From Candidatus Gottesmanbacteria bacterium (lineage in GTDB: Bacteria > Patescibacteriota > Microgenomatia > UBA10105 > UBA927), in assembly GCA_030679255.1 (NCBI GenBank), contig JAUXTO010000013.1, forward strand, positions 18,696-82,695: DNA of 64,000 nt, given 5' to 3'. Positions 5,970-58,285 of the stretch are shown here, piece after piece. Numbering within the stretch: position 1 is the stretch's first letter; every line of letters starts with the position of its first letter. Both the position numbers and the translations under genes were made by a program. The notes under the pieces are model-generated. The model did no database searches. It saw nothing but the letters and a program-made list of their open reading frames with translations, and was not told where the DNA came from.

Positions 5970-6018
5970 AGTTATTCAAGACCACCTCTTGCAAATTGCA
6001 AGAGGTGGTCTTATGAAA

Positions 6019-7999: not shown

Positions 8000-8571
8000 A
8001 CGATGGTATATTTATTGATAAATCCTGCAATAACCGTATTGTTTCCGTACACATCGGTATTCAAATTCCTCATCAGCTCCCAATGAATATCACGCAAATT
8101 GTCAAAAAATGCATCTCCATCCAAATATAATGTATCGCACAGAGCCCGTTCCGGTGTAGCCTTATGGACACCGTCTACAAATATTGTTCCGATATGGTTG
8201 AGCAAAATATCATCTTTGATTTTTCGATAGATATATTTTTGACCATCAACTTCATATATTTCCGATCTCTGGGATACGGCGTATATGTCCGAATAGGGCT
8301 GAAATATGATTCCTACTTCCTGCAATACGGTGTAGAGGCTTATATAGGAAGGAGTTCTAAACTTATTGGCAAACTCTATCCTGGAATAATCGTTGGAAAA
8401 TGCATAAATACCCCGCGTAATTCTTTTTACATCCTTCTTTTTGGTCGCATATTTCAGAGCAGAATACAATTTGGCGCCACTATATCCTGCAACTTGTTGC
8501 GACAAATCAGAAACCAAATAAACAGTTTGACGGGAATTTTTACCTATGGATAACGCTTTTATATACCCCAT
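7996..8571 (-). CDS. AbiEi-family antitoxin / transcriptional autoregulator
   Basis: About 190 aa, immediately upstream of and translationally coupled to the AbiEii toxin. Family assignment rests on architecture plus sequence character. Confidence 0.65.
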   Translation of the reverse strand: MGYIKALSIGKNSRQTVYLVSDLSQQVAGYSGAKLYSALKYATKKKDVKRITRGIYAFSNDYSRIEFANKFRTPSYISLYTVLQEVGIIFQPYSDIYAVSQRSEIYEVDGQKYIYRKIKDDILLNHIGTIFVDGVHKATPERALCDTLYLDGDAFFDNLRDIHWELMRNLNTDVYGNNTVIAGFINKYTIV

Positions 8572-8619
8572 ATCACCCCGAAGTGTAAATTATTTCCATT
8601 TCCATGTCAAGAGAATCGA

Positions 8620-8740
8620 TTTAAAATAAAGACTCAGTGGGCTTTATATGATCAAGTGTTAGCTTACTATACAAAAATGTACAGTATCCTTACATTGATC
8701 ACAAGGAGATCTTTAAACACAGTAGCTTTTCCTCGTTTAA
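8620..8740. promoter_or_regulatory. Conserved ~100-bp element, copy 1, upstream of AbiEi #1. It contains the inverted repeat TGATCAAGTGT..N33..ACATTGATCA and is a candidate AbiEi operator/promoter.
   Basis: Near-identical copies occur at 10180-10290 and 13560-13660. Confidence 0.5.
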
Positions 8741-8781
8741 CAGGCGATCACGAGGGAAAGAACTGGTTAATTCATATTCTG

Positions 8782-9567
8782 CTATTTCGCCAATTCTCCA
8801 AAAAAATCCAACCTATCTGCCTGCTTTTCATCAAAGAGAAACGGCCGGAGTTTAATTTTATACCGCGAAAGCGATGAATATTCCAAGTCAAATTTCTTCC
8901 GTGCTCTATCCATTATATCAACCGGTATATGATTTGTTTTGGCAAAAGTTAGGTCTGGTTTGATCCCACGGGATAGAAGCCAAACGAGATCATATAAATC
9001 GCGAGGTTGGGTTTCCCCTCTTCCTACATACGCTGCTAACTTTTCTACCATCATCTGCTCAAGCGATTTGGTGACAACTGTGGCCAAAAAGCCATAACGA
9101 TTCACGAAAACCGTTTCCCGTATTTGTCCCCGCCAAGAGTATTCAATGTCCAGTTTAATCATCAATTTTTCATCTTTATTAGGACTCAGCTGAAGCTGAG
9201 TGAGTAATCCCGGAAAACGCAATTCGAAATAGCTTCTCTTTATCGTCTTATTTCGATGGAGTTCTACAGTAATATCCTCCTGCTGTAGCCTCTGGAGTAC
9301 GATATTCACGAGTAGGTGTACTTGAGGGGAAGGTATTCCGACCGCATCAAAATCCAAATCCTCGGAAAAGCGGTCAAGTCCGCGTAATATTCGGAGTGCT
9401 GTTCCACCGACAAAAAAAAGGTTTTGAGAAATTTTCTCCTGATAGAGAAACGAGAGAATTTTCGTCTGCAAATACTCCCGCAGAATTGCGCGTCGTTTCT
9501 CCGGGGGCAATCCATACGTCCGGGCAAAACTCAGGATTTCAGTAAAATTGACAATGGCATTATTCAT
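8782..9567 (-). CDS. AbiEii-family nucleotidyltransferase toxin, copy 2
   Basis: FFVGGTALRILRGLDRFSEDLDFD motif. Start taken at the internal Met (MNNAIV..), which gives an ATGA overlap with AbiEi #2. Confidence 0.75.
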   Translation of the reverse strand: MNNAIVNFTEILSFARTYGLPPEKRRAILREYLQTKILSFLYQEKISQNLFFVGGTALRILRGLDRFSEDLDFDAVGIPSPQVHLLVNIVLQRLQQEDITVELHRNKTIKRSYFELRFPGLLTQLQLSPNKDEKLMIKLDIEYSWRGQIRETVFVNRYGFLATVVTKSLEQMMVEKLAAYVGRGETQPRDLYDLVWLLSRGIKPDLTFAKTNHIPVDIMDRARKKFDLEYSSLSRYKIKLRPFLFDEKQADRLDFFGELAK

Positions 9568-10118
9568 GACAGTTTTATTTCCTGTATCCACTTCGGAAAA
9601 TGAACGGCATATTCACGGTATCGTTTCCAGTCCCAATCGTTAAGCTGTAAGCGCATTTCCGGTGAAATGCTCCGTATCCGTCGTAAATAAAAGTAATCCA
9701 AAAGCGCCTTTTCTTTGTACGCTATGGCAAACGGCGTTTGAGAGAAACCAAAAAAAAGTGCACGATCAACTTTGAAATAATGATATACCCCAAACCCCGT
9801 TTCAATTTTTTTCGTAGTAACCGGCGTGACACAACTGACCGCCATGGGAATATCCGGGATAATCCCGTAGTAATTGAGTGCTGTTTCCAAACTGACGTAG
9901 GATGGGAAATAGAGTTGTTCGGCCAACGCAAGTTCGTCAATGGTACTTTTGTCAAAACAATATAATCCCCGCTTAAGCTGAGAAATAAACCCCTTTTTTA
10001 CGAAACGGTAGAGCTGGGTCCTGATCGTCGAAGATTGCTCCGCTGGGAAAAGCTTCGCCACATCTAAAATCCGGAAATAATTTCCCTCAATTTGTTTCCT
10101 TAGATCTAAATACCTCAT
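9564..10118 (-). CDS. AbiEi-family antitoxin, copy 2
   Basis: 184 aa, upstream of and coupled to AbiEii #2. Same architecture as copies 1 and 3. Confidence 0.6.
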   Translation of the reverse strand: MRYLDLRKQIEGNYFRILDVAKLFPAEQSSTIRTQLYRFVKKGFISQLKRGLYCFDKSTIDELALAEQLYFPSYVSLETALNYYGIIPDIPMAVSCVTPVTTKKIETGFGVYHYFKVDRALFFGFSQTPFAIAYKEKALLDYFYLRRIRSISPEMRLQLNDWDWKRYREYAVHFPKWIQEIKLS

Positions 10119-10179: not shown

Positions 10180-10290
10180 CAAAATAATTGAGACTCGGTC
10201 ATCCTTATCTGATCAAATGTTACATTACTATACAAAAATGTACAGTATCCTTACATTGATCACAAGGAGATCTTTAAACACAGCACCATG
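10180..10290. promoter_or_regulatory. Conserved ~100-bp element, copy 2, upstream of AbiEi #2
   Basis: ..atgttacattactatacaaaaatgtacagtatccttacattgatcacaaggagatctttaaacaca is almost identical to 8660-8740. Confidence 0.5.
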
Positions 10291-13363: not shown

Positions 13364-13376
13364 TCGTTAAATCTTT

Positions 13377-13511
13377 CTATTTGGTCGCATATTTCAGAGC
13401 AGAATACAATTTGGCGCCACTATATCCTGCAACTTGTTGTGATAAATCCGAAACCAAATAAACAGTTTGACGGGAATTTTTACCTATGGATAACGATTTT
13501 ATATACCCCAT
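13377..13511 (-). pseudogene. Truncated AbiEi N-terminal remnant (44 codons then stop)
   Basis: Translates MGYIKSLSIGKNSRQTVYLVSDLSQQVAGYSGAKLYSALKYATK*, nearly identical to the first 44 aa of AbiEi #1. 13380-13560 aligns to 8441-8620. Confidence 0.75.
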
Positions 13512-13559
13512 ATCACCCTGAGGTGTAAATTATTTCCATTTCCACGTCAAGAGAATCTA

Positions 13560-13660
13560 TTTAAAATTGAGACTTAGTCGTCCTTATATGATCAAGTGTT
13601 AGCTTACTATACATAAATGTACATTATCGTGACACTGATCACACGAAAATCTTTCCATGT
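13560..13660. promoter_or_regulatory. Conserved ~100-bp element, copy 3 (orphan, upstream of the AbiEi remnant)
   Basis: Aligns to 8620-8740 with a few substitutions. Confidence 0.5.
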
Positions 13661-13746
13661 AGTAGCTAGTCTTCATTGTAGCAGGCGGTGATGAGAGAGA
13701 TCCGATTTCTTCATTTGACCGATTGTAACATACGACCAAATCCAAA

Positions 13747-47664: not shown

Positions 47665-47747
47665 TGACTTAGGAATTAGGACTTAAGATCTGCGAACATC
47701 CACTCTATCCTACGTCCTATGTCCTACGTCCTATGTCCTATGTCCCA
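47665..47747. repeat. Composite repeat upstream of the four-helix-bundle gene: TTAGGA(A/C) units at 47665-47688, then 6 tandem YGTCCTA heptamers at 47706-47747, in inverted orientation to each other
   Basis: tgacttaggaattaggacttaaga ... tatccta|cgtccta|tgtccta|cgtccta|tgtccta|tgtccca. Confidence 0.8.
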
Positions 47748-48566
47748 CTACCCCGTATTTATGCGGAAATTTAGTTCTGGGTCAAATAGCCATTTTCTTT
47801 TATTCACGTTGTCATAGTAATGAAGAATCCTTAACCGGTAAAAAACAGCGAGCGTTTCCCAAAGCACATTGGCGATGATATTCCAAAAATTCTTTGACGT
47901 AATACTGGATACACCGCCGAACGTAAGCTCTACAGGTGCCTCGTAAATCCGGGTATACCCTAGCCGGTGTGCAACGGAAAGAATTTCGATATCAAAAGCA
48001 AATTCCTTCACCAAGAGTCTGGGTAGAACATCTTCAAGCACAACACGACGGTATAATTTGAGGCCCACCTGTGAATCACGGATGTTTAATCCAAATAGTA
48101 TCTTTACCAACACTTGATACCCGAAAGACAATACTTTTCGAAAGAATGGGTATTCTACTTTCGAAGCCGGGTGTCTCTTACTACCAATGATACAATCAGC
48201 GTTATACCAATTAAAATGTGCAAGAAGTATGGATATTCCCTCTGACTTCAAATCGCCTCCCGCATCGATAAATCCAATGATGTCTCCGTGGCTTTTTGCC
48301 ATGCCAAAACGCACTGCATAACCTTTTCCATGATTGGTCGCATAACCCGTGATAACTATATGGGGTGAAGTAACTTTTGATACTTCTTCCCGGCTTCGAT
48401 CCATGTACCCGTCTACAACCACGATAATCTCATAATCAATCCCAAGAGTATCAAGCTCCGCCACAATGGACCGTAAATTTTGGGCAATTACTTTTTCCTG
48501 TTTATAGACAGGAACGATGAGTGATAACAATTTAAGCTTTTTTCGTAACATACTTATAATAAACAA
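47748..48566 (-). CDS. GT2 polyprenol-phosphate glycosyltransferase (DPM1-like)
   Basis: LSLIVPVYKQE, VVVDGYMDRS, ..IGFIDAGGDL.. Confidence 0.75.
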   Translation of the reverse strand: MFIISMLRKKLKLLSLIVPVYKQEKVIAQNLRSIVAELDTLGIDYEIIVVVDGYMDRSREEVSKVTSPHIVITGYATNHGKGYAVRFGMAKSHGDIIGFIDAGGDLKSEGISILLAHFNWYNADCIIGSKRHPASKVEYPFFRKVLSFGYQVLVKILFGLNIRDSQVGLKLYRRVVLEDVLPRLLVKEFAFDIEILSVAHRLGYTRIYEAPVELTFGGVSSITSKNFWNIIANVLWETLAVFYRLRILHYYDNVNKRKWLFDPELNFRINTG

Positions 48567-49791
48567 GAAGACTCATAAATAATAGTATTGAGATAACTAC
48601 ATTTACGTATGTTACTTCAAGAAGGGACCCATGATAGAGGACTATTAATACGTATTGTAAAACCGCCACTATCATCGTGATTACCCATATTCCAGTCACG
48701 CCCATTGCAAGCAGTGTTGTGAGAAGCAGTGTAGCCATCGTATAAAACATAACAAATATCCCGAACCATCCGAGGTATGGTGCAGCTCCTGCAAATGCCG
48801 GTCCGAGAGGTAAGACAACCGTTGAAGGGAATAGAAAATATATAATCGTTATCATAAGTGACATGGATCCTACGGCAATAAGTCCCAATTTAACAGATCG
48901 CCCAAAATCTTCCTTGAGTTCCTTCCGCTGAGCCACTAAAGGAAATAATACGTATCCTACTGCCGATGATGCATAAAATATAATTTTACCTAACACGGAA
49001 AGTGACGCGTATATTCCGGCATCATAGCTCGTAAAATAATGTTTAACCAATAATACGTCTTGACTATTGAGCACCGTTAACCCAAGTGTCGTCAAAAGCA
49101 CGGGAACGCCATAGCTCAACGCATCCTTCTTACTTATTGTCAACTTTTTGGCTTTAGTATGAAAAAGAAAACGTAAAGGGAAAAAATAGACTGCAAATGA
49201 ACCGATATTTGTGATGATATTAGCAATGAGTGTCCACCCGACGCCAAAAAATGCTCCGATTATTCCCGAGATCAACCGCAACAACATGCCGATATTCGAG
49301 ACCAGTGTGAGCGGCATAAACTGCTGAAAACCCTGCAGCGCCGCTCCGGCGGGCACGGCTATGGTGGACGTCGCAAAAATGACATAGATCAGAAAAAAAT
49401 AGAGATAGGAATCAATATGCAGATAAGCGGATAAAAATGGTGCAAGAGGAAATAACACTATTATTCCAACGACAGAAGCTATAGTTATTTTTTTCGTTGC
49501 CATCCAAAAAAGCGTGTTTGCCTGACCATAATCATTTCTCGCTTTGTACACCGAAAAAAACTTAAGGAGAGATATTTGTACGACACTCGTAAAAACGTTC
49601 AATATATAGAAGATCGCAAACAAAGATGATAACTCTGAATACTTTTCCGGACCAAGAATACGGCCTACAAATAAATGATATAACCAGCCGCTGAAATTGG
49701 CAGTAGTGGATCCGATAAATACGAGGGCACTATTTTTGAATAAATGGTGAGATGTAACAGCAATAAAAAATGTTTTAATTCTCTTTTGCAT
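48532..49791 (-). CDS. wzx: Wzx-like oligosaccharide/polysaccharide flippase (MOP superfamily)
   Basis: 419 aa, about 12 TM helices, polysaccharide-biosynthesis-protein architecture. Confidence 0.7.
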   Translation of the reverse strand: MQKRIKTFFIAVTSHHLFKNSALVFIGSTTANFSGWLYHLFVGRILGPEKYSELSSLFAIFYILNVFTSVVQISLLKFFSVYKARNDYGQANTLFWMATKKITIASVVGIIVLFPLAPFLSAYLHIDSYLYFFLIYVIFATSTIAVPAGAALQGFQQFMPLTLVSNIGMLLRLISGIIGAFFGVGWTLIANIITNIGSFAVYFFPLRFLFHTKAKKLTISKKDALSYGVPVLLTTLGLTVLNSQDVLLVKHYFTSYDAGIYASLSVLGKIIFYASSAVGYVLFPLVAQRKELKEDFGRSVKLGLIAVGSMSLMITIIYFLFPSTVVLPLGPAFAGAAPYLGWFGIFVMFYTMATLLLTTLLAMGVTGIWVITMIVAVLQYVLIVLYHGSLLEVTYVNVVISILLFMSLLVYYKYVTKKA

Positions 49792-49798
49792 AGAATAT

Positions 49799-50956
49799 TT
49801 AATTAGATTCTGTTATTGCAGATATTTTTTCAAAATAATTTTGTGCATTAATTATCTCACGATGACTGGGAAGTGGAAAAATATTCTTTACGTTCCCTTT
49901 AGTAGTTTTTATCTCTACGGCTTTGTAGTTCTTTTTATAATCCTCCACTATGAGATCAACTTCTTTACCACCATATTCGCGATAAAAATATAAAGAAAGT
50001 TTAGCTTTATTGTTTTTCCGTTGCTTCTCTATTTCAGACACGATAAAGTTTTCAAAAACTCCTCCCTTGTCAGGACGAAGTTCTAAATCTCGAAAATCTT
50101 TAACGAGTATGTTCCGGATCCCTAAATCATAAAAATATAATTTTCTATTGTCAGACACGGCTTTTCGTACATTTGTTCTAAACGATGGAAGCGGAATTAA
50201 AATATAGTTTTTGATAAAAATCTCAATATAATTTGAGACGGTAATCTGGTTCGCATTGAGACTTACAGCAATTTCACGGATTGATACCTCCGATCCGAGT
50301 TGCAATGCAATCTTTGTGAGAATATCGCGAGCGAGCTTTTCGTTTTTAAGATCATAAATTTCTATGACATCTTTTAACACATATGTATCCAAAATTTTTT
50401 CTAATAGATCAATCTTACCTGCCTCCGAAAGCTTATTTTGTACATATAGTTCAGGATACGCACCAAAAATTTGCAACTTAGCTTGAAGTTCTTTAAAAAA
50501 ACTATCCTTTTCGTACGAAACGAGAGGGGTATTATCGGCAATTTCTTCTATCGAAAGCGGCAGGCAATAGGACTCAATAAATCGCCCAGCCATCGTATCA
50601 AATTTCTGATTAGCTTTTTGCCGAAGTTCACTTGAGCCGGTAGCTATCACCTTGACTTTAAAGTCGTCATAGAGAAGTTTTAGCGCTACAGTTGACTCAG
50701 GAGAATTTTGCACCTCGTCAATGAGAATGACTTTATGCGTGGATACGAGCTTCTCAAGAATCTCGCGTTTCGGCAAAAATAATTCGCGGTCGGACTGATA
50801 ATCGAAATTAAAAAACGGAACGTTTAACTCTTTTGAGAGTCGTTTCAACAATGTTGTTTTCCCTGAACGACGAGGACCCCAAATGAAGAGTGTTTTGTAG
50901 GACTGTCCTTGTAAATATTCATCTACCTGAACGTCAATTGATCTTTTTAATAACAT
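49799..50956 (-). CDS. AAA+ ATPase of the DUF4143/AAA_14 type, copy 2
   Basis: P-loop IWGPRRSGKTTLL, Walker B VILIDEVQ. AT-rich. A palindrome TTGCATA-N7-TATGCAA at about 50989-51014 lies just upstream. Confidence 0.75.
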   Translation of the reverse strand: MLLKRSIDVQVDEYLQGQSYKTLFIWGPRRSGKTTLLKRLSKELNVPFFNFDYQSDRELFLPKREILEKLVSTHKVILIDEVQNSPESTVALKLLYDDFKVKVIATGSSELRQKANQKFDTMAGRFIESYCLPLSIEEIADNTPLVSYEKDSFFKELQAKLQIFGAYPELYVQNKLSEAGKIDLLEKILDTYVLKDVIEIYDLKNEKLARDILTKIALQLGSEVSIREIAVSLNANQITVSNYIEIFIKNYILIPLPSFRTNVRKAVSDNRKLYFYDLGIRNILVKDFRDLELRPDKGGVFENFIVSEIEKQRKNNKAKLSLYFYREYGGKEVDLIVEDYKKNYKAVEIKTTKGNVKNIFPLPSHREIINAQNYFEKISAITESN

Positions 50957-51047
50957 ACTCGTATTTTCACTATATCATTTTAATACTAATTTGCATAGTG
51001 TCAATATGCAATTTAGTACCATTTTGCCGTTGGTAAAATCATAATTA

Positions 51048-51758
51048 TTAAACAAATCTTTGATAGATAAGCGTGCCGAGAGCAATTATCCCATCCCTCC
51101 AGGTCAATTTTTTCCCTTCGGAAAACTTACGGCCAAAATAGGAAATCGGCACTTCATATATCTGATGGCCGGACTTGAGCACTTTAGCGGTAAATTCCGG
51201 CTCAAAGTCAAACCGTCGGGCGTGGATGAATATCCCGTCCAGGACCGTACGTCGAAACACTTTATATCCCGTTTCCATGTCCGTAATATTCGTATTGTAA
51301 AGGATGTTGGTCACCCATGTCACAAACTTATTGCCAAGCGCATAGAGATACATGGTCGAAAGATGCGCGCCTAAAAACCGTGATCCGTAGACGACCGTCA
51401 CCCGTGCATTGGTAAATGGCTCAAGGAGCGTAGGGTAATCTGCAGGACTATATTCTAAATCCGCATCCTGAAGGAGGATTAACTGCCCTGTCGCCTGTTT
51501 TATGCCTTCGACAATTGCAGCTCCTTTCCCCTGATTTTCTGGTTGAACGAGAAGCGTAATTTTCTTTTTCCATGGGGCAAGGATTCCCCCCGTTTTATCT
51601 GTCGAACCGTCATCTACGACAATGACCTGCTTTTTCCAACCCGCCAGACGGACGGCAAAAACGCGTTTAAGCACTTCCTCAATGGATGCTTCTTCGTTAT
51701 AGACCGGAATGATGATAGTTAATTGCTGCATGAAAATAATACTATCACGCCAGAGCAC
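51048..51758 (-). CDS. GT2 polyprenol-phosphate glycosyltransferase (DPM1-like)
   Basis: LTIIIPVYNEE, VVDDGSTDKT, LLQDADLEY. Confidence 0.8.
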   Translation of the reverse strand: MLWRDSIIFMQQLTIIIPVYNEEASIEEVLKRVFAVRLAGWKKQVIVVDDGSTDKTGGILAPWKKKITLLVQPENQGKGAAIVEGIKQATGQLILLQDADLEYSPADYPTLLEPFTNARVTVVYGSRFLGAHLSTMYLYALGNKFVTWVTNILYNTNITDMETGYKVFRRTVLDGIFIHARRFDFEPEFTAKVLKSGHQIYEVPISYFGRKFSEGKKLTWRDGIIALGTLIYQRFV

Positions 51759-52875
51759 TCTTATAAGACTCTATCGTTTCGCGGGCCACGCGCTCCCAGG
51801 AAAACTGTTGTCCCCATACGCTCTGCTTATGAATGCTATCTTTGCGATCTCGAACAGGCATCGTAAGCGCATCCATAAGTCCGCGGGCAATATCATCGGG
51901 ATCATTGGGCTCTACCACCATTGCCGGACCCGCAATTTCGATGAGGCTCCCGCCGCCTGTTGTCACGACCACAGTCCCACAGGACATCGCTTCCAATACC
52001 GGCAATCCGAATCCTTCATAAAACGAGGGTTGGATATAGACTGATGCAAGATTATATAGAGCAACTAAATCTTCCAACACTACGCCTCCCACCCTTACGA
52101 TATCATCATCAAGTTTATGAGCTGCGATATAGGCATTGATCTCATTCGCTTCAACGGATTCATGAACAAACCCTTTCCCCACAAGCACTAACTTGAGTTT
52201 TTTCAGAAGGTTGTCATTCCCGCGAAGGCGGGAATCCAGTATTTGAGATTTGATAATTTTAAATGCTTTTAACATTCCAAAAATATTTTTATTCCAGTTA
52301 ATGTCCCCTACGTACAATACAAATTTTTCCGGAAGATCATAGTTTTTCCTGACTTTTTTCAATACTTCTTTATCCGAAATCTGCCTAAACGCTGGTGCGG
52401 CTGCCAATCGGATGACGTCGATCGATTGCGGCGAAATGCCAGCCAAACGTATAATATCCCGCTTTGATGATTCAGAATCCGTAATAATGCGCGTAGTCCG
52501 ACCCAGGCTCCACCGTTGCACTTGCCACTTGAGTCTACCCCGAATCCCTGCCGGAAAATGCTCCGGAAATACAAGCGGGATGAGATCGTGCACGGTGACA
52601 ACTATGGGAAGAGTATGAAAAACCGGCAGGGCAATAAAAAACGGATCGAAATACGGATAATGGACAATATCGACATTTTTGGGTACCTTTTGTCCCCGAG
52701 TAAAAAAATGATACGAATGGTTGCCCTCATACTTCTGTAGCGCTTCAATTAATAACTTTGTGTACCTCCCCACTCCCCGGTCCTTATGTCCGGTCTCAAG
52801 AGGGGTGGTATCGATAGCGATTCTCATACGTATACGTAAGTATAGTGGAAGAAAGAAGCCAAAACAAACACCCAA
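51745..52875 (-). CDS. Glycosyltransferase family 4 carrying an in-frame 27-bp palindromic insertion
   Basis: ..PSFYEGFGLPVLEAMSCGTVVVTTGGGSLIEIAG.. The interdomain linker contains ..QILDSRLRGNDNLL.., encoded by the repeat at 52213-52239. The likely start is Met at 52827 (MRIAIDTT). Confidence 0.8.
   Translation of the reverse strand: MGVCFGFFLPLYLRIRMRIAIDTTPLETGHKDRGVGRYTKLLIEALQKYEGNHSYHFFTRGQKVPKNVDIVHYPYFDPFFIALPVFHTLPIVVTVHDLIPLVFPEHFPAGIRGRLKWQVQRWSLGRTTRIITDSESSKRDIIRLAGISPQSIDVIRLAAAPAFRQISDKEVLKKVRKNYDLPEKFVLYVGDINWNKNIFGMLKAFKIIKSQILDSRLRGNDNLLKKLKLVLVGKGFVHESVEANEINAYIAAHKLDDDIVRVGGVVLEDLVALYNLASVYIQPSFYEGFGLPVLEAMSCGTVVVTTGGGSLIEIAGPAMVVEPNDPDDIARGLMDALTMPVRDRKDSIHKQSVWGQQFSWERVARETIESYKSALA
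52213..52239. repeat. Second copy of the 27-bp palindromic element GTCATTCCCGCGAAGGCGGGAATCCAG, inserted in-frame in the GT4 coding sequence
   Basis: Identical to 60-86. Encodes LDSRLRGND on the minus strand. Confidence 0.8.
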
Positions 52876-54397
52876 ACGATACTAAATCAACAACAATGCG
52901 GAGGGGAGTTTCAGAAAAATATGTCGTAATCATATGAGTACCGGAGCTAAAAGTGGTACTAATCATCCCCTTCTCATCCGGCGTAGCGTTTGCATCTTTT
53001 CCATCGACGAGCACGCGCCAACCGGGATAATACGCGACATGCGTACGCAGAACTCCTCCTGACGAGGAAACGACCTCTCCGGTAAACGTCGTCACTCCTT
53101 CCTCCTTCATCGTGACCAATCCAACGCCCGAAATTATTTCCATGCGCGCTTCGGGTCGATCCCTCTGCCACCCCATCCAGACGGTGGAAAATCCATTGCC
53201 GAGCGACGAGGTGCCGTCCGTAAATTCGCGTCTCGAGAGATAATAATCATCCGGCCGGACATCGTAAAGCACTGGTTTGGTATAAGAATATGAAACGAAC
53301 ACTGCGCATAACACAACACCGACTGAAATCAACGGCCAACGAATCCGGGAAAGCATCGCTGCGGTGAGAAAGGGTGTCGCGACTATCCCCACGGACAATA
53401 GCCGCCAGGGATATTGAATATTTATCAGAAACGGTATATTCTCCCAAATCGGTATACTTATCTCAAGCATGAGAAAAAATGCAACGCAGGCCGCGACAAT
53501 AAAAACGGACGCATATCTTTCCCTTCGCCAAAGCAAAATCGGCGAAATGAGGAGGATGAGCATCGGGGCAAACCCGACTTGATAGGACATTTCATCCAGT
53601 GCGTATCCGGATCCCGATAGCCCGGTCCCCCAGGAAGGGATAAGAATCTGAACCAATTGCGGAAAATGATCTCTAACGTTGACGGTATTGAGTCCCGTGA
53701 CGTATCCCCGCTCTGCGATGGCGGGTACCCAAAAATATGAAGTGAGGACAATTCCCACGATCATCCATCGCAGCATGGATCTGTCCGTCATCCATGCATA
53801 GATGAAAAGAACGGGCAGAAATATCATGGCCATGATGTTGTGGCTTACAATTATTCCGGCGACCATAAACGCGAGAAGTTTCTTTTTCCCATACGCTATA
53901 CCGGCAAGAGCCGAAAATACAAATCCAAGGGCAAGCACCTCCCCCACTGATCCCCGCACAAATATATCCACAAACCAATAGGGAACAAACGCGCCCATGA
54001 CGCTTCCGAGTACTGCTGGCAAAATTCCATATAACCGTTTCAACCAAACATAGGAAGCGGCAATTGCCAAGATATATCCCGCTGCCATAGTCAGTCGGAA
54101 CGAATCCGCAAGACTCCAGCCCAGAAGATGAAAAAACGAGCCGATATAATTCGGCAAGGGGTAGAAAAAGGAAAATAGTGGAACTCCATATCCGCTATTG
54201 AGTCCGGGTGCCCAGCGCGGAAAAAGATGACCGGAGGCGATCATGCGGCCGAATTCGTAGAATCGGATCAAATGATACTCTCCGTCATGGGTCGGTAAAA
54301 ACCCGGGCACAAAAAGCCAACGCACGGCTATCACACTGACAATGATGACTACAAGAAATCCCATCTTCGCAATAAATAGATTCCTCCTATAATTCAT
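52796..54397 (-). CDS. Polytopic membrane protein, family B (N-terminal HDGxxHxxR..RWxPxxNxGYGxPxFxFYPLPxY motif; C-terminal YxPGWxVxVDG beta-rich domain plus TM). Putative GT-C-like glycosyltransferase, possibly PTPS-related membrane-protein family.
   Basis: THDGEYHLIRFYEFGRMIASGHLFPRWAPGLNSGYGVPLFSFFYPLPNY. Paralogs at 59636-61366 and 61341-62987. Confidence 0.5.
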   Translation of the reverse strand: MNYRRNLFIAKMGFLVVIIVSVIAVRWLFVPGFLPTHDGEYHLIRFYEFGRMIASGHLFPRWAPGLNSGYGVPLFSFFYPLPNYIGSFFHLLGWSLADSFRLTMAAGYILAIAASYVWLKRLYGILPAVLGSVMGAFVPYWFVDIFVRGSVGEVLALGFVFSALAGIAYGKKKLLAFMVAGIIVSHNIMAMIFLPVLFIYAWMTDRSMLRWMIVGIVLTSYFWVPAIAERGYVTGLNTVNVRDHFPQLVQILIPSWGTGLSGSGYALDEMSYQVGFAPMLILLISPILLWRRERYASVFIVAACVAFFLMLEISIPIWENIPFLINIQYPWRLLSVGIVATPFLTAAMLSRIRWPLISVGVVLCAVFVSYSYTKPVLYDVRPDDYYLSRREFTDGTSSLGNGFSTVWMGWQRDRPEARMEIISGVGLVTMKEEGVTTFTGEVVSSSGGVLRTHVAYYPGWRVLVDGKDANATPDEKGMISTTFSSGTHMITTYFSETPLRIVVDLVSFGCLFWLLSSTILTYTYENRYRYHPS

Positions 54398-57151: not shown

Positions 57152-58285
57152 TTAATTCAATTTTTTACGGAGACGAACGTACCACCCACACAAAACATCT
57201 GCTGCAAATATATATGCAAACGGCAGTATCGGTAATAAATATCGCGCAGAGGATTGATTTAATGAAATCATGATAAAGTAGGCAATCGTCCACAAATACA
57301 CTATTTGCTGAGCAAGAGATAAACGAAAAAATGAACGAGTGTGATTCAAAATCCAAATCCATGTCAGACCAAAAAGAACGGGCCAGCTGAAATGCCAATT
57401 CGCGTCGCGAATCACTGGCTGGTCGCCCCACCATACATGCCAACGATTAAAGAAAATTAAATCCCACACCGTAAAAAAACGATTTAATTTACTCACATTG
57501 TAGATATAACTCCACTTTTGAATCCCTAAGACACTCCACGGCGTATACCCACGATAATATATTGGAATATACGAAACAATTGCGACAACAGCGATCGATA
57601 GGTAACCGAAAATGAGCCACCCAATGAGATTTCTCTTATGAAACATAATATATGCAGTATAAATAGCCAGGAGCGGTAGAGAAATCGAAAATATTTTTGT
57701 CATCATTGCTGCTCCAAGCAATACCATGGAGATGAATATCAAAAATCCGCTTTTTTCAAGTCCTTTGATAAAAAAATAGACGGACCATATCTGAAACGTC
57801 ATCATAGGAATGTCCAACAGTGGCATAAATTTAAATTGACTCGTAATTAAAGGCTGAAATAAGATGATTATAATAAGTATCAATACGATGGGCGTCGAAG
57901 AAATAATTTCTTTTCCCAAAAAATATATACCGGTTAAAAAGAATATAAATACTACTATCATGATGATATTCGGATTATCAAATAATACGATCGACAATGA
58001 AAATAGTTGCTTCCCCAACGGTGGCGTGCCAGGATTGACATCCAATAAGCTTTCCCCCTTGAGATAGGCTCCTGCTGCATATGCATAAAGCGTCTCATCG
58101 GGAATGGATGCGGTCGGATGTATACTAATATATTGTGAATTAAGATAAGCATTTTTATATGCTTCATATCCGGCCCAATACGAACCTTGAAAATACGAAC
58201 GCGACTCATACATCAGAAATCCGAAACGGATAATGATAAATGTGACAAGGAGGATAGTTATCATCCGTGGTTTACGCCTCATCAT
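57152..58285 (-). CDS. PMT_2/ArnT-like GT-C glycosyltransferase (polyprenol-phosphate-sugar-dependent)
   Basis: First extracytoplasmic loop ..SIPDETLYAYAAGAYLKGESL..NPGTPPLGKQLFSL carries a DE motif like ArnT/PMT families. About 10 TM helices. Confidence 0.55.
   Translation of the reverse strand: MMRRKPRMITILLVTFIIIRFGFLMYESRSYFQGSYWAGYEAYKNAYLNSQYISIHPTASIPDETLYAYAAGAYLKGESLLDVNPGTPPLGKQLFSLSIVLFDNPNIIMIVVFIFFLTGIYFLGKEIISSTPIVLILIIIILFQPLITSQFKFMPLLDIPMMTFQIWSVYFFIKGLEKSGFLIFISMVLLGAAMMTKIFSISLPLLAIYTAYIMFHKRNLIGWLIFGYLSIAVVAIVSYIPIYYRGYTPWSVLGIQKWSYIYNVSKLNRFFTVWDLIFFNRWHVWWGDQPVIRDANWHFSWPVLFGLTWIWILNHTRSFFRLSLAQQIVYLWTIAYFIMISLNQSSARYLLPILPFAYIFAADVLCGWYVRLRKKLN

Follow-up and report, generated by a model that had tools for sequence, protein, structure and literature searches.

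A 64-kb stretch of DNA from a Candidatus Gottesmanbacteria genome (the window) was analyzed for a short hairpin repeat that occurs once between genes (59-86) and once inside a gene for a GT4-family glycosyltransferase (52212-52239). On the basis of their sequence, both copies are canonical members of a pan-bacterial family published in 2025, that of the Neisseria Transformation Sequence (NTS) and the degenerate Ssn-related motif (SRM). We consider it likely that the units in the window serve Ssn-type GIY-YIG nucleases as hairpin signals on single-stranded DNA (ssDNA); one forms part of a doublet that encloses no gene, and the other is a solo unit of nine codons that its host gene tolerates. 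A repeat that looked like a private oddity of an uncultured bacterium is thereby identified as a canonical copy of the recognition hairpin of Ssn nucleases. The family identity, hairpin, orientation, pan-bacterial spread, association with ssn genes elsewhere, insertion into a gene and turnover in related Gottesmanbacteria are results of the present analysis. Binding and cleavage by Ssn and the effect on transformation in Neisseria were taken from the literature.

Sequence, orientation and family identity of the repeat

The 27-mer GTCATTCCCGCGAAGGCGGGAATCCAG was found on the plus strand at 60-86 and 52213-52239, with 0 mismatches between the copies, and the flanks of the two copies had no relation to each other. 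In 100 dinucleotide-preserving shuffles there was no match, even at up to three mismatches. The exact search and the shuffles bore out an earlier reading made from the letters alone (the sequence-only reading), which had reported two identical copies with unrelated flanks. It had also noted a likeness to dRS3 of Neisseria. This likeness was real, since ATTCCC-N8-GGGAAT was present exactly, at the same two sites of the window only (0.27 expected). The unit was not the perfect palindrome that had been described. It consisted of an 8-bp stem, ATTCCCGC/GCGGGAAT, around a 4-nt GAAG loop, with asymmetric flanks (GTC on the 5′ side and CCAG on the 3′ side). Because these flanks are not complementary, the unit has an orientation. 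The ssDNA hairpins of the units in the window gave DNA fold z-scores of −4.1 to −5.5. No direct repeat of the kind left by target-site duplication was found around either copy. A weak match to a generalised pattern at 57699 was taken as chance; this pattern gave four matches against 0.39 expected, and three of them were known units. The G+C content of the window was ~42%, and the closest homologues of the GT4 protein carried the labels Patescibacteria or Candidatus Gottesmanbacteria. These labels assigned the window to a genome of the Candidate Phyla Radiation (CPR) and not to Neisseria, in agreement with the sequence-only reading.

The NTS, defined by Chenal et al. (Nat Commun 2025, PMC11893778), is a 28-nt sequence, CGTCATTCCCGCGMAVGCGGGAATCYRG, that includes dRS3 and takes its orientation from its flanks. 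We applied the published criterion of no more than one mismatch to this consensus. The unit at 59-86, which is GTCATTCCCGCGAAGGCGGGAATCCAG plus one upstream base, matched at 28 of 28 positions, and the unit at 52212-52239 matched at 27 of 28, with T for C at position 1. The SRM search pattern HGTCWYN(0-2)YYVSBRHN(0-5)WNVSBRGN(0-2)RNCYNB gave two matches in the window, which were exactly the two copies, compared with 0.16 (sd 0.37) in 100 dinucleotide-preserving shuffles. Both copies combined the ssDNA hairpin with the orienting flanks, namely the upstream GTC and the C right after the palindrome, and these positions are important for SsnA (PMC11893778). SsnA is a GIY-YIG nuclease of 94 aa that binds the NTS hairpin as ssDNA only and cleaves a few nucleotides upstream of it; it is inactive on the reverse strand, on double-stranded DNA and on RNA, and it reduces the transformation of N. 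meningitidis by NTS-bearing DNA (PMC11893778). Binding and cleavage of ssDNA, on the forward strand only, were published for the Neisseria and Wolbachia homologues (PMC11893778). A full-text literature search with the exact 20-mer core returned no paper. The lead that joined the dRS3 repeat to the NTS/Ssn paper came from the GIY-YIG open reading frames (ORFs) seen between inverted copies, described below.

Bacterial genomes were scanned, one per species, with the 20-bp core alone and the flanks unconstrained. At least 120 stretches of genomic DNA held the exact core. They represented many phyla, including Bacteroidota, Alpha-, Beta-, Gamma- and Deltaproteobacteria (Pseudomonadota), Chloroflexota, Planctomycetota, Nitrospirota, Gemmatimonadota, Acidobacteriota, Spirochaetota, Rickettsia and at least eight Patescibacteria loci. 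The exact 27-mer was found in 74 viral contigs. In the 146 copies among the matches listed, the conserved 5′ flank was C/T at −4 (93%) and GTC at −3 to −1 (99%), and the conserved 3′ flank was C at +1 (97%), C/T at +2, A at +3 (86%) and G at +4 (62%). Beyond −4 and +4 these copies were unrelated, and by this measure the unit limits given in the sequence-only reading were right to within one base. Its view that the palindrome was independent and merely of the same form as dRS3 was refuted. The two copies agree at 28/28 and 27/28 with an oriented NTS that contains dRS3, and many phyla share the exact core together with its YGTC...CYAG flanks.

The repeat took three forms: cassettes with an ssn gene between two units (NTS-ssn-NTS), inverted doublets that enclose no gene, and units standing alone. 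An inverted partner lay within 150 nt of 66 of the 146 listed copies (~45%), with a median gap of 41 nt, and partner units were often variants with changed stems (GGATCCCCGCC...GGGGATGAC or GGACCCCCGCC...GGGGGTGAC). At several loci the inverted pair enclosed an ORF of ~95 aa that scored as GIY-YIG (PF01541, E down to 4e-17). An Ssn-like gene adjoined the NTS at 7 of the 120 listed genome loci and at 6 of the 74 viral loci, and the gene between the inverted copies was GIY-YIG in all 13 of these cassettes. Target-site duplication was absent from 25 of the 26 pairs examined. A degenerate SRM flanks 71% of ssnA homologues across phyla, and the NTS-ssnA-NTS layout has been likened to an insertion sequence and to the REP/RAYT relationship (PMC11893778). 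The same cassette was recovered independently here for the identical sequence in other genomes.

The intergenic copy was part of a 67-bp doublet (59-125) that resembled a REPIN or BIME. It was composed of the canonical unit on the plus strand (59-86; CGTC + ATTCCCGC-GAAG-GCGGGAAT + CCAG), a 10-nt spacer (87-96; AATTAATGAA) and an inverted variant unit on the minus strand (97-125; CTGGATGCCGGATCAAGTCCGGCATGAC at 97-124). The variant unit reads TGTCATGCCGGACTTGATCCGGCATCCAG on the minus strand, i.e. TGTCAT-GCCGGA-CTTGA-TCCGGC-ATCCAG, in which the GTCAT...ATCCAG frame is kept and the stem is different. The doublet filled most of the 87-nt spacer between the stop codon of an acetyltransferase gene (134-136) and the ATG (46) of the next minus-strand gene. 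As DNA it was predicted to fold into a three-way junction on both strands (plus, −19.9 kcal/mol, z = −4.6; minus, −19.4 kcal/mol, z = −5.5), with the spacer as the loop of a middle stem, ATCCAG/CTGGAT. Two additional hairpins had been proposed up to about position 120. Extra structure was indeed present there, but it consisted of the middle stem and the inverted second unit, and the whole formed one doublet. The same pairing of NTS and variant was found in a metagenome-assembled genome of Desulfobacterales (L027), and the exact variant unit occurred in four viral contigs, including one homo-doublet.

The in-frame copy and insertions in relatives

The GT4-family glycosyltransferase is an intact protein of 360 aa encoded on the minus strand (51745-52827), with homologues carrying PF00534/PF13439. 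Its gene had been given the extent 51745-52875. The start was revised after comparison with homologues and is most likely the ATG at 52827 (MRIAID...), as in those homologues, rather than the TTG at 52875. The solo unit, TGTC...CCAG on the plus strand, is read on the coding strand as CTG GAT TCC CGC CTT CGC GGG AAT GAC, which gives LDSRLRGND at residues 197-205. The ORF remained intact across these 27 nt, so that the reported insertion without a frame break was upheld. In an AlphaFold2 model built with 41 homologues, residues 197-205 lay between helix 182-198 and strand 212-216 of the C-terminal Rossmann domain, and the block 201-210 had the lowest pLDDT of the model (67, compared with a mean of 92.1). 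According to this model, the insertion is in a surface loop of the C-terminal Rossmann domain. Its earlier placement in the interdomain linker was wrong.

The 27-mer is open in five of the six reading frames, with stop codons in one frame only (six-frame translation by hand). The five open frames give VIPAKAGIQ, SFPRRRES, HSREGGNP, LDSRLRGND and WIPAFAGM, and the same peptides were seen among in-ORF copies in other genomes. LDSRLRGND, VIPAKAGIQ, SFPRRRES and WIPAFAGM are stereotyped repeat-derived peptides that annotators can recognise. The GT4 protein tolerated the insertion because 27 nt make nine codons, because five of the six frames are open and because the loop is hypervariable. Among the copies in other genomes, 14 of 134 (~10%) lay in ORFs open for at least 80 codons on both sides, compared with 338 of 600 random positions. 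The repeat is depleted from genes, not excluded from them. In N. meningitidis, 2% of NTS are intragenic (PMC11893778).

The loop was hypervariable in length among orthologues and was mostly 9-12 residues shorter than in the window. The sequence-only reading had proposed to check whether orthologous GT4 genes lack the 27 bp, and the NTS peptide was absent from 119 of the 120 closest homologue clusters. The closest relative and sister, P0001, was 83% identical and syntenic and had no NTS. The exception, P0007, was 62% identical and carried GTCATTCCCGCGAAAGCGGGAATCCAG at the same codon position together with an 18-nt partial duplication. In a neighbour-joining tree calculated without the loop, P0007 fell in a different clade, and its nearest relatives had the shortest loops. 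Two independent insertions into a permissive loop, or allele exchange, would be more economical than an ancient shared sequence. A contig from Logan accession SRR13727518 (L121) was 100% identical to 47711-52239 and ended exactly at the outer edge of the NTS, as expected for a contig break induced by a repeat; the NTS repeat breaks short-read assemblies. Metagenome scans gave 0 matches for the filled or the empty allele with exact flanks and 0 matches for a GT4 of any kind in which an NTS stands at this distance from the NWNKN motif.

Other recurrent inserts were observed in the same loop (residues 190-211, about 52195-52260) in separate neighbour-joining clades. SPR(L/F)..GE(A/S)GQ was found in P0001, P0008 and P0020, and KSKVKS(S/G)NQE(L/I)KQD in P0011 and P0014. 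The loop of P0003 contained the hairpin-forming LPAMLRIASQAG, and the loop DNA among homologues contained 7-nt tandem repeats, (GTCAAAA)n or (GTCACGY)n. The GT4 loop may be a hotspot of insertion or recombination. The inserts of P0001 and P0014 were considered as decayed NTS copies, which was not demonstrable from their sequence.

Related contigs (~62 kb) were picked through the GT4 protein and not through the repeat, and they contained four more SRM matches. In L123, the closest relative (9239-9303; also in L124; Hainich groundwater), an in-frame NTS doublet was found in a gene for a YfhO-like membrane protein (8362-10017). This doublet consisted of TGTCATTCCCGCGCACGCGGGAATCTAG, 8 nt and inverted GTCATCCCCGACCTGATCGGGGATCCGG, and it added ~22 residues (...MSFPRTRESRVKTGSPIRSGMTDS...) that were absent from the orthologues in the window, L125 and L122. 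The orthologue in the window lies on the minus strand at 52796-54397 and adjoins the GT4 gene. The final 12 codons (...QSFPRTRESRVF*) of the YfhO-like gene in L122 came from a doublet at 2367-2436, AGTCATTCCCGCGTACGCGGGAATCCAG + 11 nt + inverted variant, which also filled the spacer to the GT4 gene. The GT4 loop of L122 also carried an NTS and an 18-nt partial duplication. No NTS insertions were found in L125-L128. Together with the Falkowbacteria locus described next, these insertion states indicate that CPR genomes have gained or lost units repeatedly and in a lineage-specific way. Three points extend what has been published: the family exists in CPR bacteria and is subject to turnover there; solo units and doublets can occupy in-frame positions within genes; and filled and empty sites occur in the same two envelope genes of close Gottesmanbacteria-like contigs. 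Such filled and empty pairs are raw material for inferring how NTS repeats move.

The Falkowbacteria locus (L096; 794-863, 2166-2193 and 4287-4314) contained four NTS units within 8 kb of an envelope-glycosylation cluster. Two of them made up a doublet, another lay in the leader of a GT4 gene, and the remaining unit supplied the C-terminal codons (...CHSREGGN...) of an O-antigen-ligase-like protein.

Candidate nucleases and alternative explanations

The plus strand, when single-stranded during replication, during repair or as incoming transforming DNA, would fold into an 8-bp GC-rich hairpin oriented by 5′ (C/T)GTC and 3′ C. A small single-domain Ssn nuclease (cd10448-type) would bind such a hairpin on ssDNA and cut a few nucleotides upstream, as in the characterised systems. 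The stretch 59-125 is a doublet without a gene in an operon spacer, and 52212-52239 is a solo unit that entered the glycosyltransferase at a surface loop and was tolerated there. We infer that an Ssn-type enzyme works, or used to work, on the copies in this organism and that the process by which the repeats spread is linked to Ssn and produces no target-site duplication.

Several points weigh against this explanation. No ssn homologue was found in the 64-kb window (best tblastn E = 0.56), and no ssn gene was found in ~200 kb of other CPR DNA. The density was low, with three units in 64 kb. The variant unit at 97-125 fails the published SRM pattern. The NTS of P0007 stands at the same codon position as that of the window, and an older single insertion with losses, or allele exchange, is possible. 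To our knowledge, the way in which NTS units are copied or inserted has been shown by nobody. We know of no GIY-YIG nuclease that transposes DNA; these enzymes are hydrolytic. In addition, the published survey used RefSeq representative genomes, and Patescibacteria are unmentioned in its main text (PMC11893778).

A further point against it concerns the small GIY-YIG genes of CPR bacteria. At two CPR loci, such a gene lay 1-2 kb from an NTS doublet, and these genes were considered as the CPR Ssn. They were rejected because they had no flanking SRMs and were linked to tRNA genes. The tRNA-linked genes (L064, 1924-2247; L207, L217 and L224, about 1900-2330; L081, 4100-4529) encoded single-domain proteins of 81-84 aa, and their labelled homologues were mostly from Patescibacteria groups (Moranbacteria, Parcubacteria). 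In L064, L207, L217 and L224, the ORF was located directly upstream of an intact tRNA-Glu(UUC), behind a duplicated 5′ half of the tRNA that reached to the anticodon loop. L081 had the same layout with a different tRNA-like 5′ half. From this layout, the arrangement looks like a homing-type cassette that targets tRNA genes and is unrelated to the NTS.

The units could also be inert relics, i.e. NTS family members in a genome without Ssn, which an earlier burst left behind or recombination with foreign or allelic DNA brought in, and which are now merely tolerated. The failure to find ssn in the window or in the other CPR DNA and the low copy density are consistent with this, and 19% of genomes with more than 200 SRMs have no detectable ssnA (PMC11893778). 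However, the same two genes show four different insertion states, each specific to a lineage, among relatives whose proteins are 60-83% identical, and this speaks for recent activity in the clade. Perfect stems and the YGTC/C flanks are retained in all copies, and the CPR DNA examined is a small fraction of any CPR genome. We therefore regard relics as a possible but somewhat unlikely explanation. A bolder proposal goes the other way. NTS/SRM units might be actively mobile in Patescibacteria, entering loops of envelope-glycosylation proteins in frame as solo units of nine codons and doublets of ~22 codons, in the manner of Rickettsia palindromic elements (RPEs). The mobilising enzyme would have to be divergent or unrecognised, because no canonical Ssn was seen in this clade. 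This proposal is speculative, and we hold it to be rather doubtful. If it is true, the filled and empty sites of closely related CPR genomes would offer a natural system in which to study the copying of Ssn-type repeats, and NTS repeats would diversify surface-glycan enzymes.

An action at the level of RNA was weighed against recognition as ssDNA. In that case, hairpins in the mRNA would serve as an intrinsic terminator, an attenuator or a 3′-end stabiliser, like some REP/BIME and Correia elements. The RNA folding that had been suggested as a check showed that the minus-strand transcript of the doublet folds well (−34.3 kcal/mol, z = −3.9), and 12 nt separate the end of the doublet from the next start codon. 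However, no terminator-like site was found in 1-1000, no T-run stood behind either hairpin, and no Rfam family was found in the window at gathering thresholds. The same unit also occurs inside coding sequence, and SsnA does not bind the RNA form (PMC11893778). Conservation across the family tracks features of DNA recognition, the oriented 5′ GTC and 3′ C. An RNA element is improbable on these grounds.

A rival in the spirit of the sequence-only reading is that the units are an independent element of REP/REPIN type, moved by a RAYT (Y1 transposase), with a convergent likeness to dRS3. The inverted doublets and the lack of target-site duplications do resemble REPINs and BIMEs. Against this, the identity with the NTS extends over its full length, including the asymmetric flanks, and the exact sequence is common to many phyla. 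No RAYT gene flanked by units was found, although RAYT was not searched for directly; the gene enclosed by inverted copies was GIY-YIG (PF01541) in every cassette. The conserved head of the units is (C/T)GTC, unlike the GTAG head of REP/RAYT systems. What had been called REP/RPE-like behaviour held in part. The repeat is a dispersed hairpin that tolerates in-frame insertion into coding sequence, but the linked gene is GIY-YIG and not a REP-type transposase. A RAYT-driven origin is very improbable.

We give hardly any credence to the nine codons being an ancient shared coding sequence or the product of a chimeric assembly joined at a repeated k-mer: the same codon position in P0007 and the public contig that breaks exactly at the repeat would fit, but the homologue clusters almost all lack the peptide, P0007 stands in a different clade among sisters with the shortest loops, and a chimera is unlikely because both flanks are halves of one GT4 gene, in frame and syntenic with L123 and L125, and an independent contig is identical across the NTS/GT4 junction.

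Comparison with known repeats, and other repeats of the window

The units of the window agree with the NTS/SRM and Ssn system in their sequence, in the SRM pattern and in the hairpin oriented by 5′ GTC and 3′ C (PMC11893778). They differ from it in that the host belongs to Patescibacteria and has no ssn in the window, one copy is in-frame coding sequence, and the partner in the doublet is outside the published pattern. The units contain the 20-bp ATTCCC-N8-GGGAAT of dRS3 exactly. In Neisseria, pairs of dRS3 flank RS elements of 50-150 bp and are clustered in arrays, and these mosaic elements (NIMEs) were held to be Neisseria-specific (PMC1797815). In contrast, the window, from an unrelated phylum, has a solo unit and, 52 kb away, a doublet whose spacer is 10 nt long and whose partner unit is not dRS3.

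With REP, BIME and REPIN sequences, the repeat shares short oriented hairpins, inverted doublets that fold into a larger structure (59-125, and 45% of the listed copies), the lack of target-site duplications and a single-copy enzyme gene flanked by repeats. The enzyme linked to the NTS differs, as it is a hydrolytic GIY-YIG protein and not an IS200/IS605-like Y1 transposase. REP families are largely species- or genus-specific, whereas the NTS is common to many phyla. Correia-type miniature inverted-repeat transposable elements are likewise small, non-autonomous and often intergenic, with inverted ends. The NTS differs from them in being a single hairpin unit without target-site duplication or transposase-derived terminal inverted repeats.

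RPEs are also palindromic repeats that are tolerated in frame in unrelated protein genes, and the tolerance of coding insertions in CPR bacteria is reminiscent of them. However, RPEs are ~100-150 bp long and were described for Rickettsia, and the unit here is 27-28 nt and the doublet 67 nt. An NTS doublet was observed inside an ORF of 1137 aa in a Rickettsia endosymbiont (L062, 1642-1769) and another inside an ORF of 488 aa in Massilia (L013, 1562-1643). To judge from the Rickettsia case, SRM doublets may account for some of the in-frame insertions of RPE type.

Other repeats were observed in the window. At 725-848, between an acetyltransferase gene and a glycosyltransferase gene (821-2035), there was an inverted repeat of ~35 bp that was imperfect and rich in AAATTCC/GGAATTT. 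It supplies the last codons (...NSKFQ*) of the latter and is a palindromic element over a gene end. A segment of ~300 nt was repeated at 8427-8726 and 13367-13666 with 90% identity, 4.9 kb apart, and a third, partial copy of 98 nt was found at 10186-10283. This segment holds a conserved TACTATACAAAAATGTACAGTAT motif, and the copies may represent gene ends or promoter regions that were duplicated inside the glycosylation cluster. Among the hairpins of the window, the longest was a perfect palindrome with a 16-bp stem at 5978-6012, AAGACCACCTCTTGCAAATTGCAAGAGGTGGTCTT.

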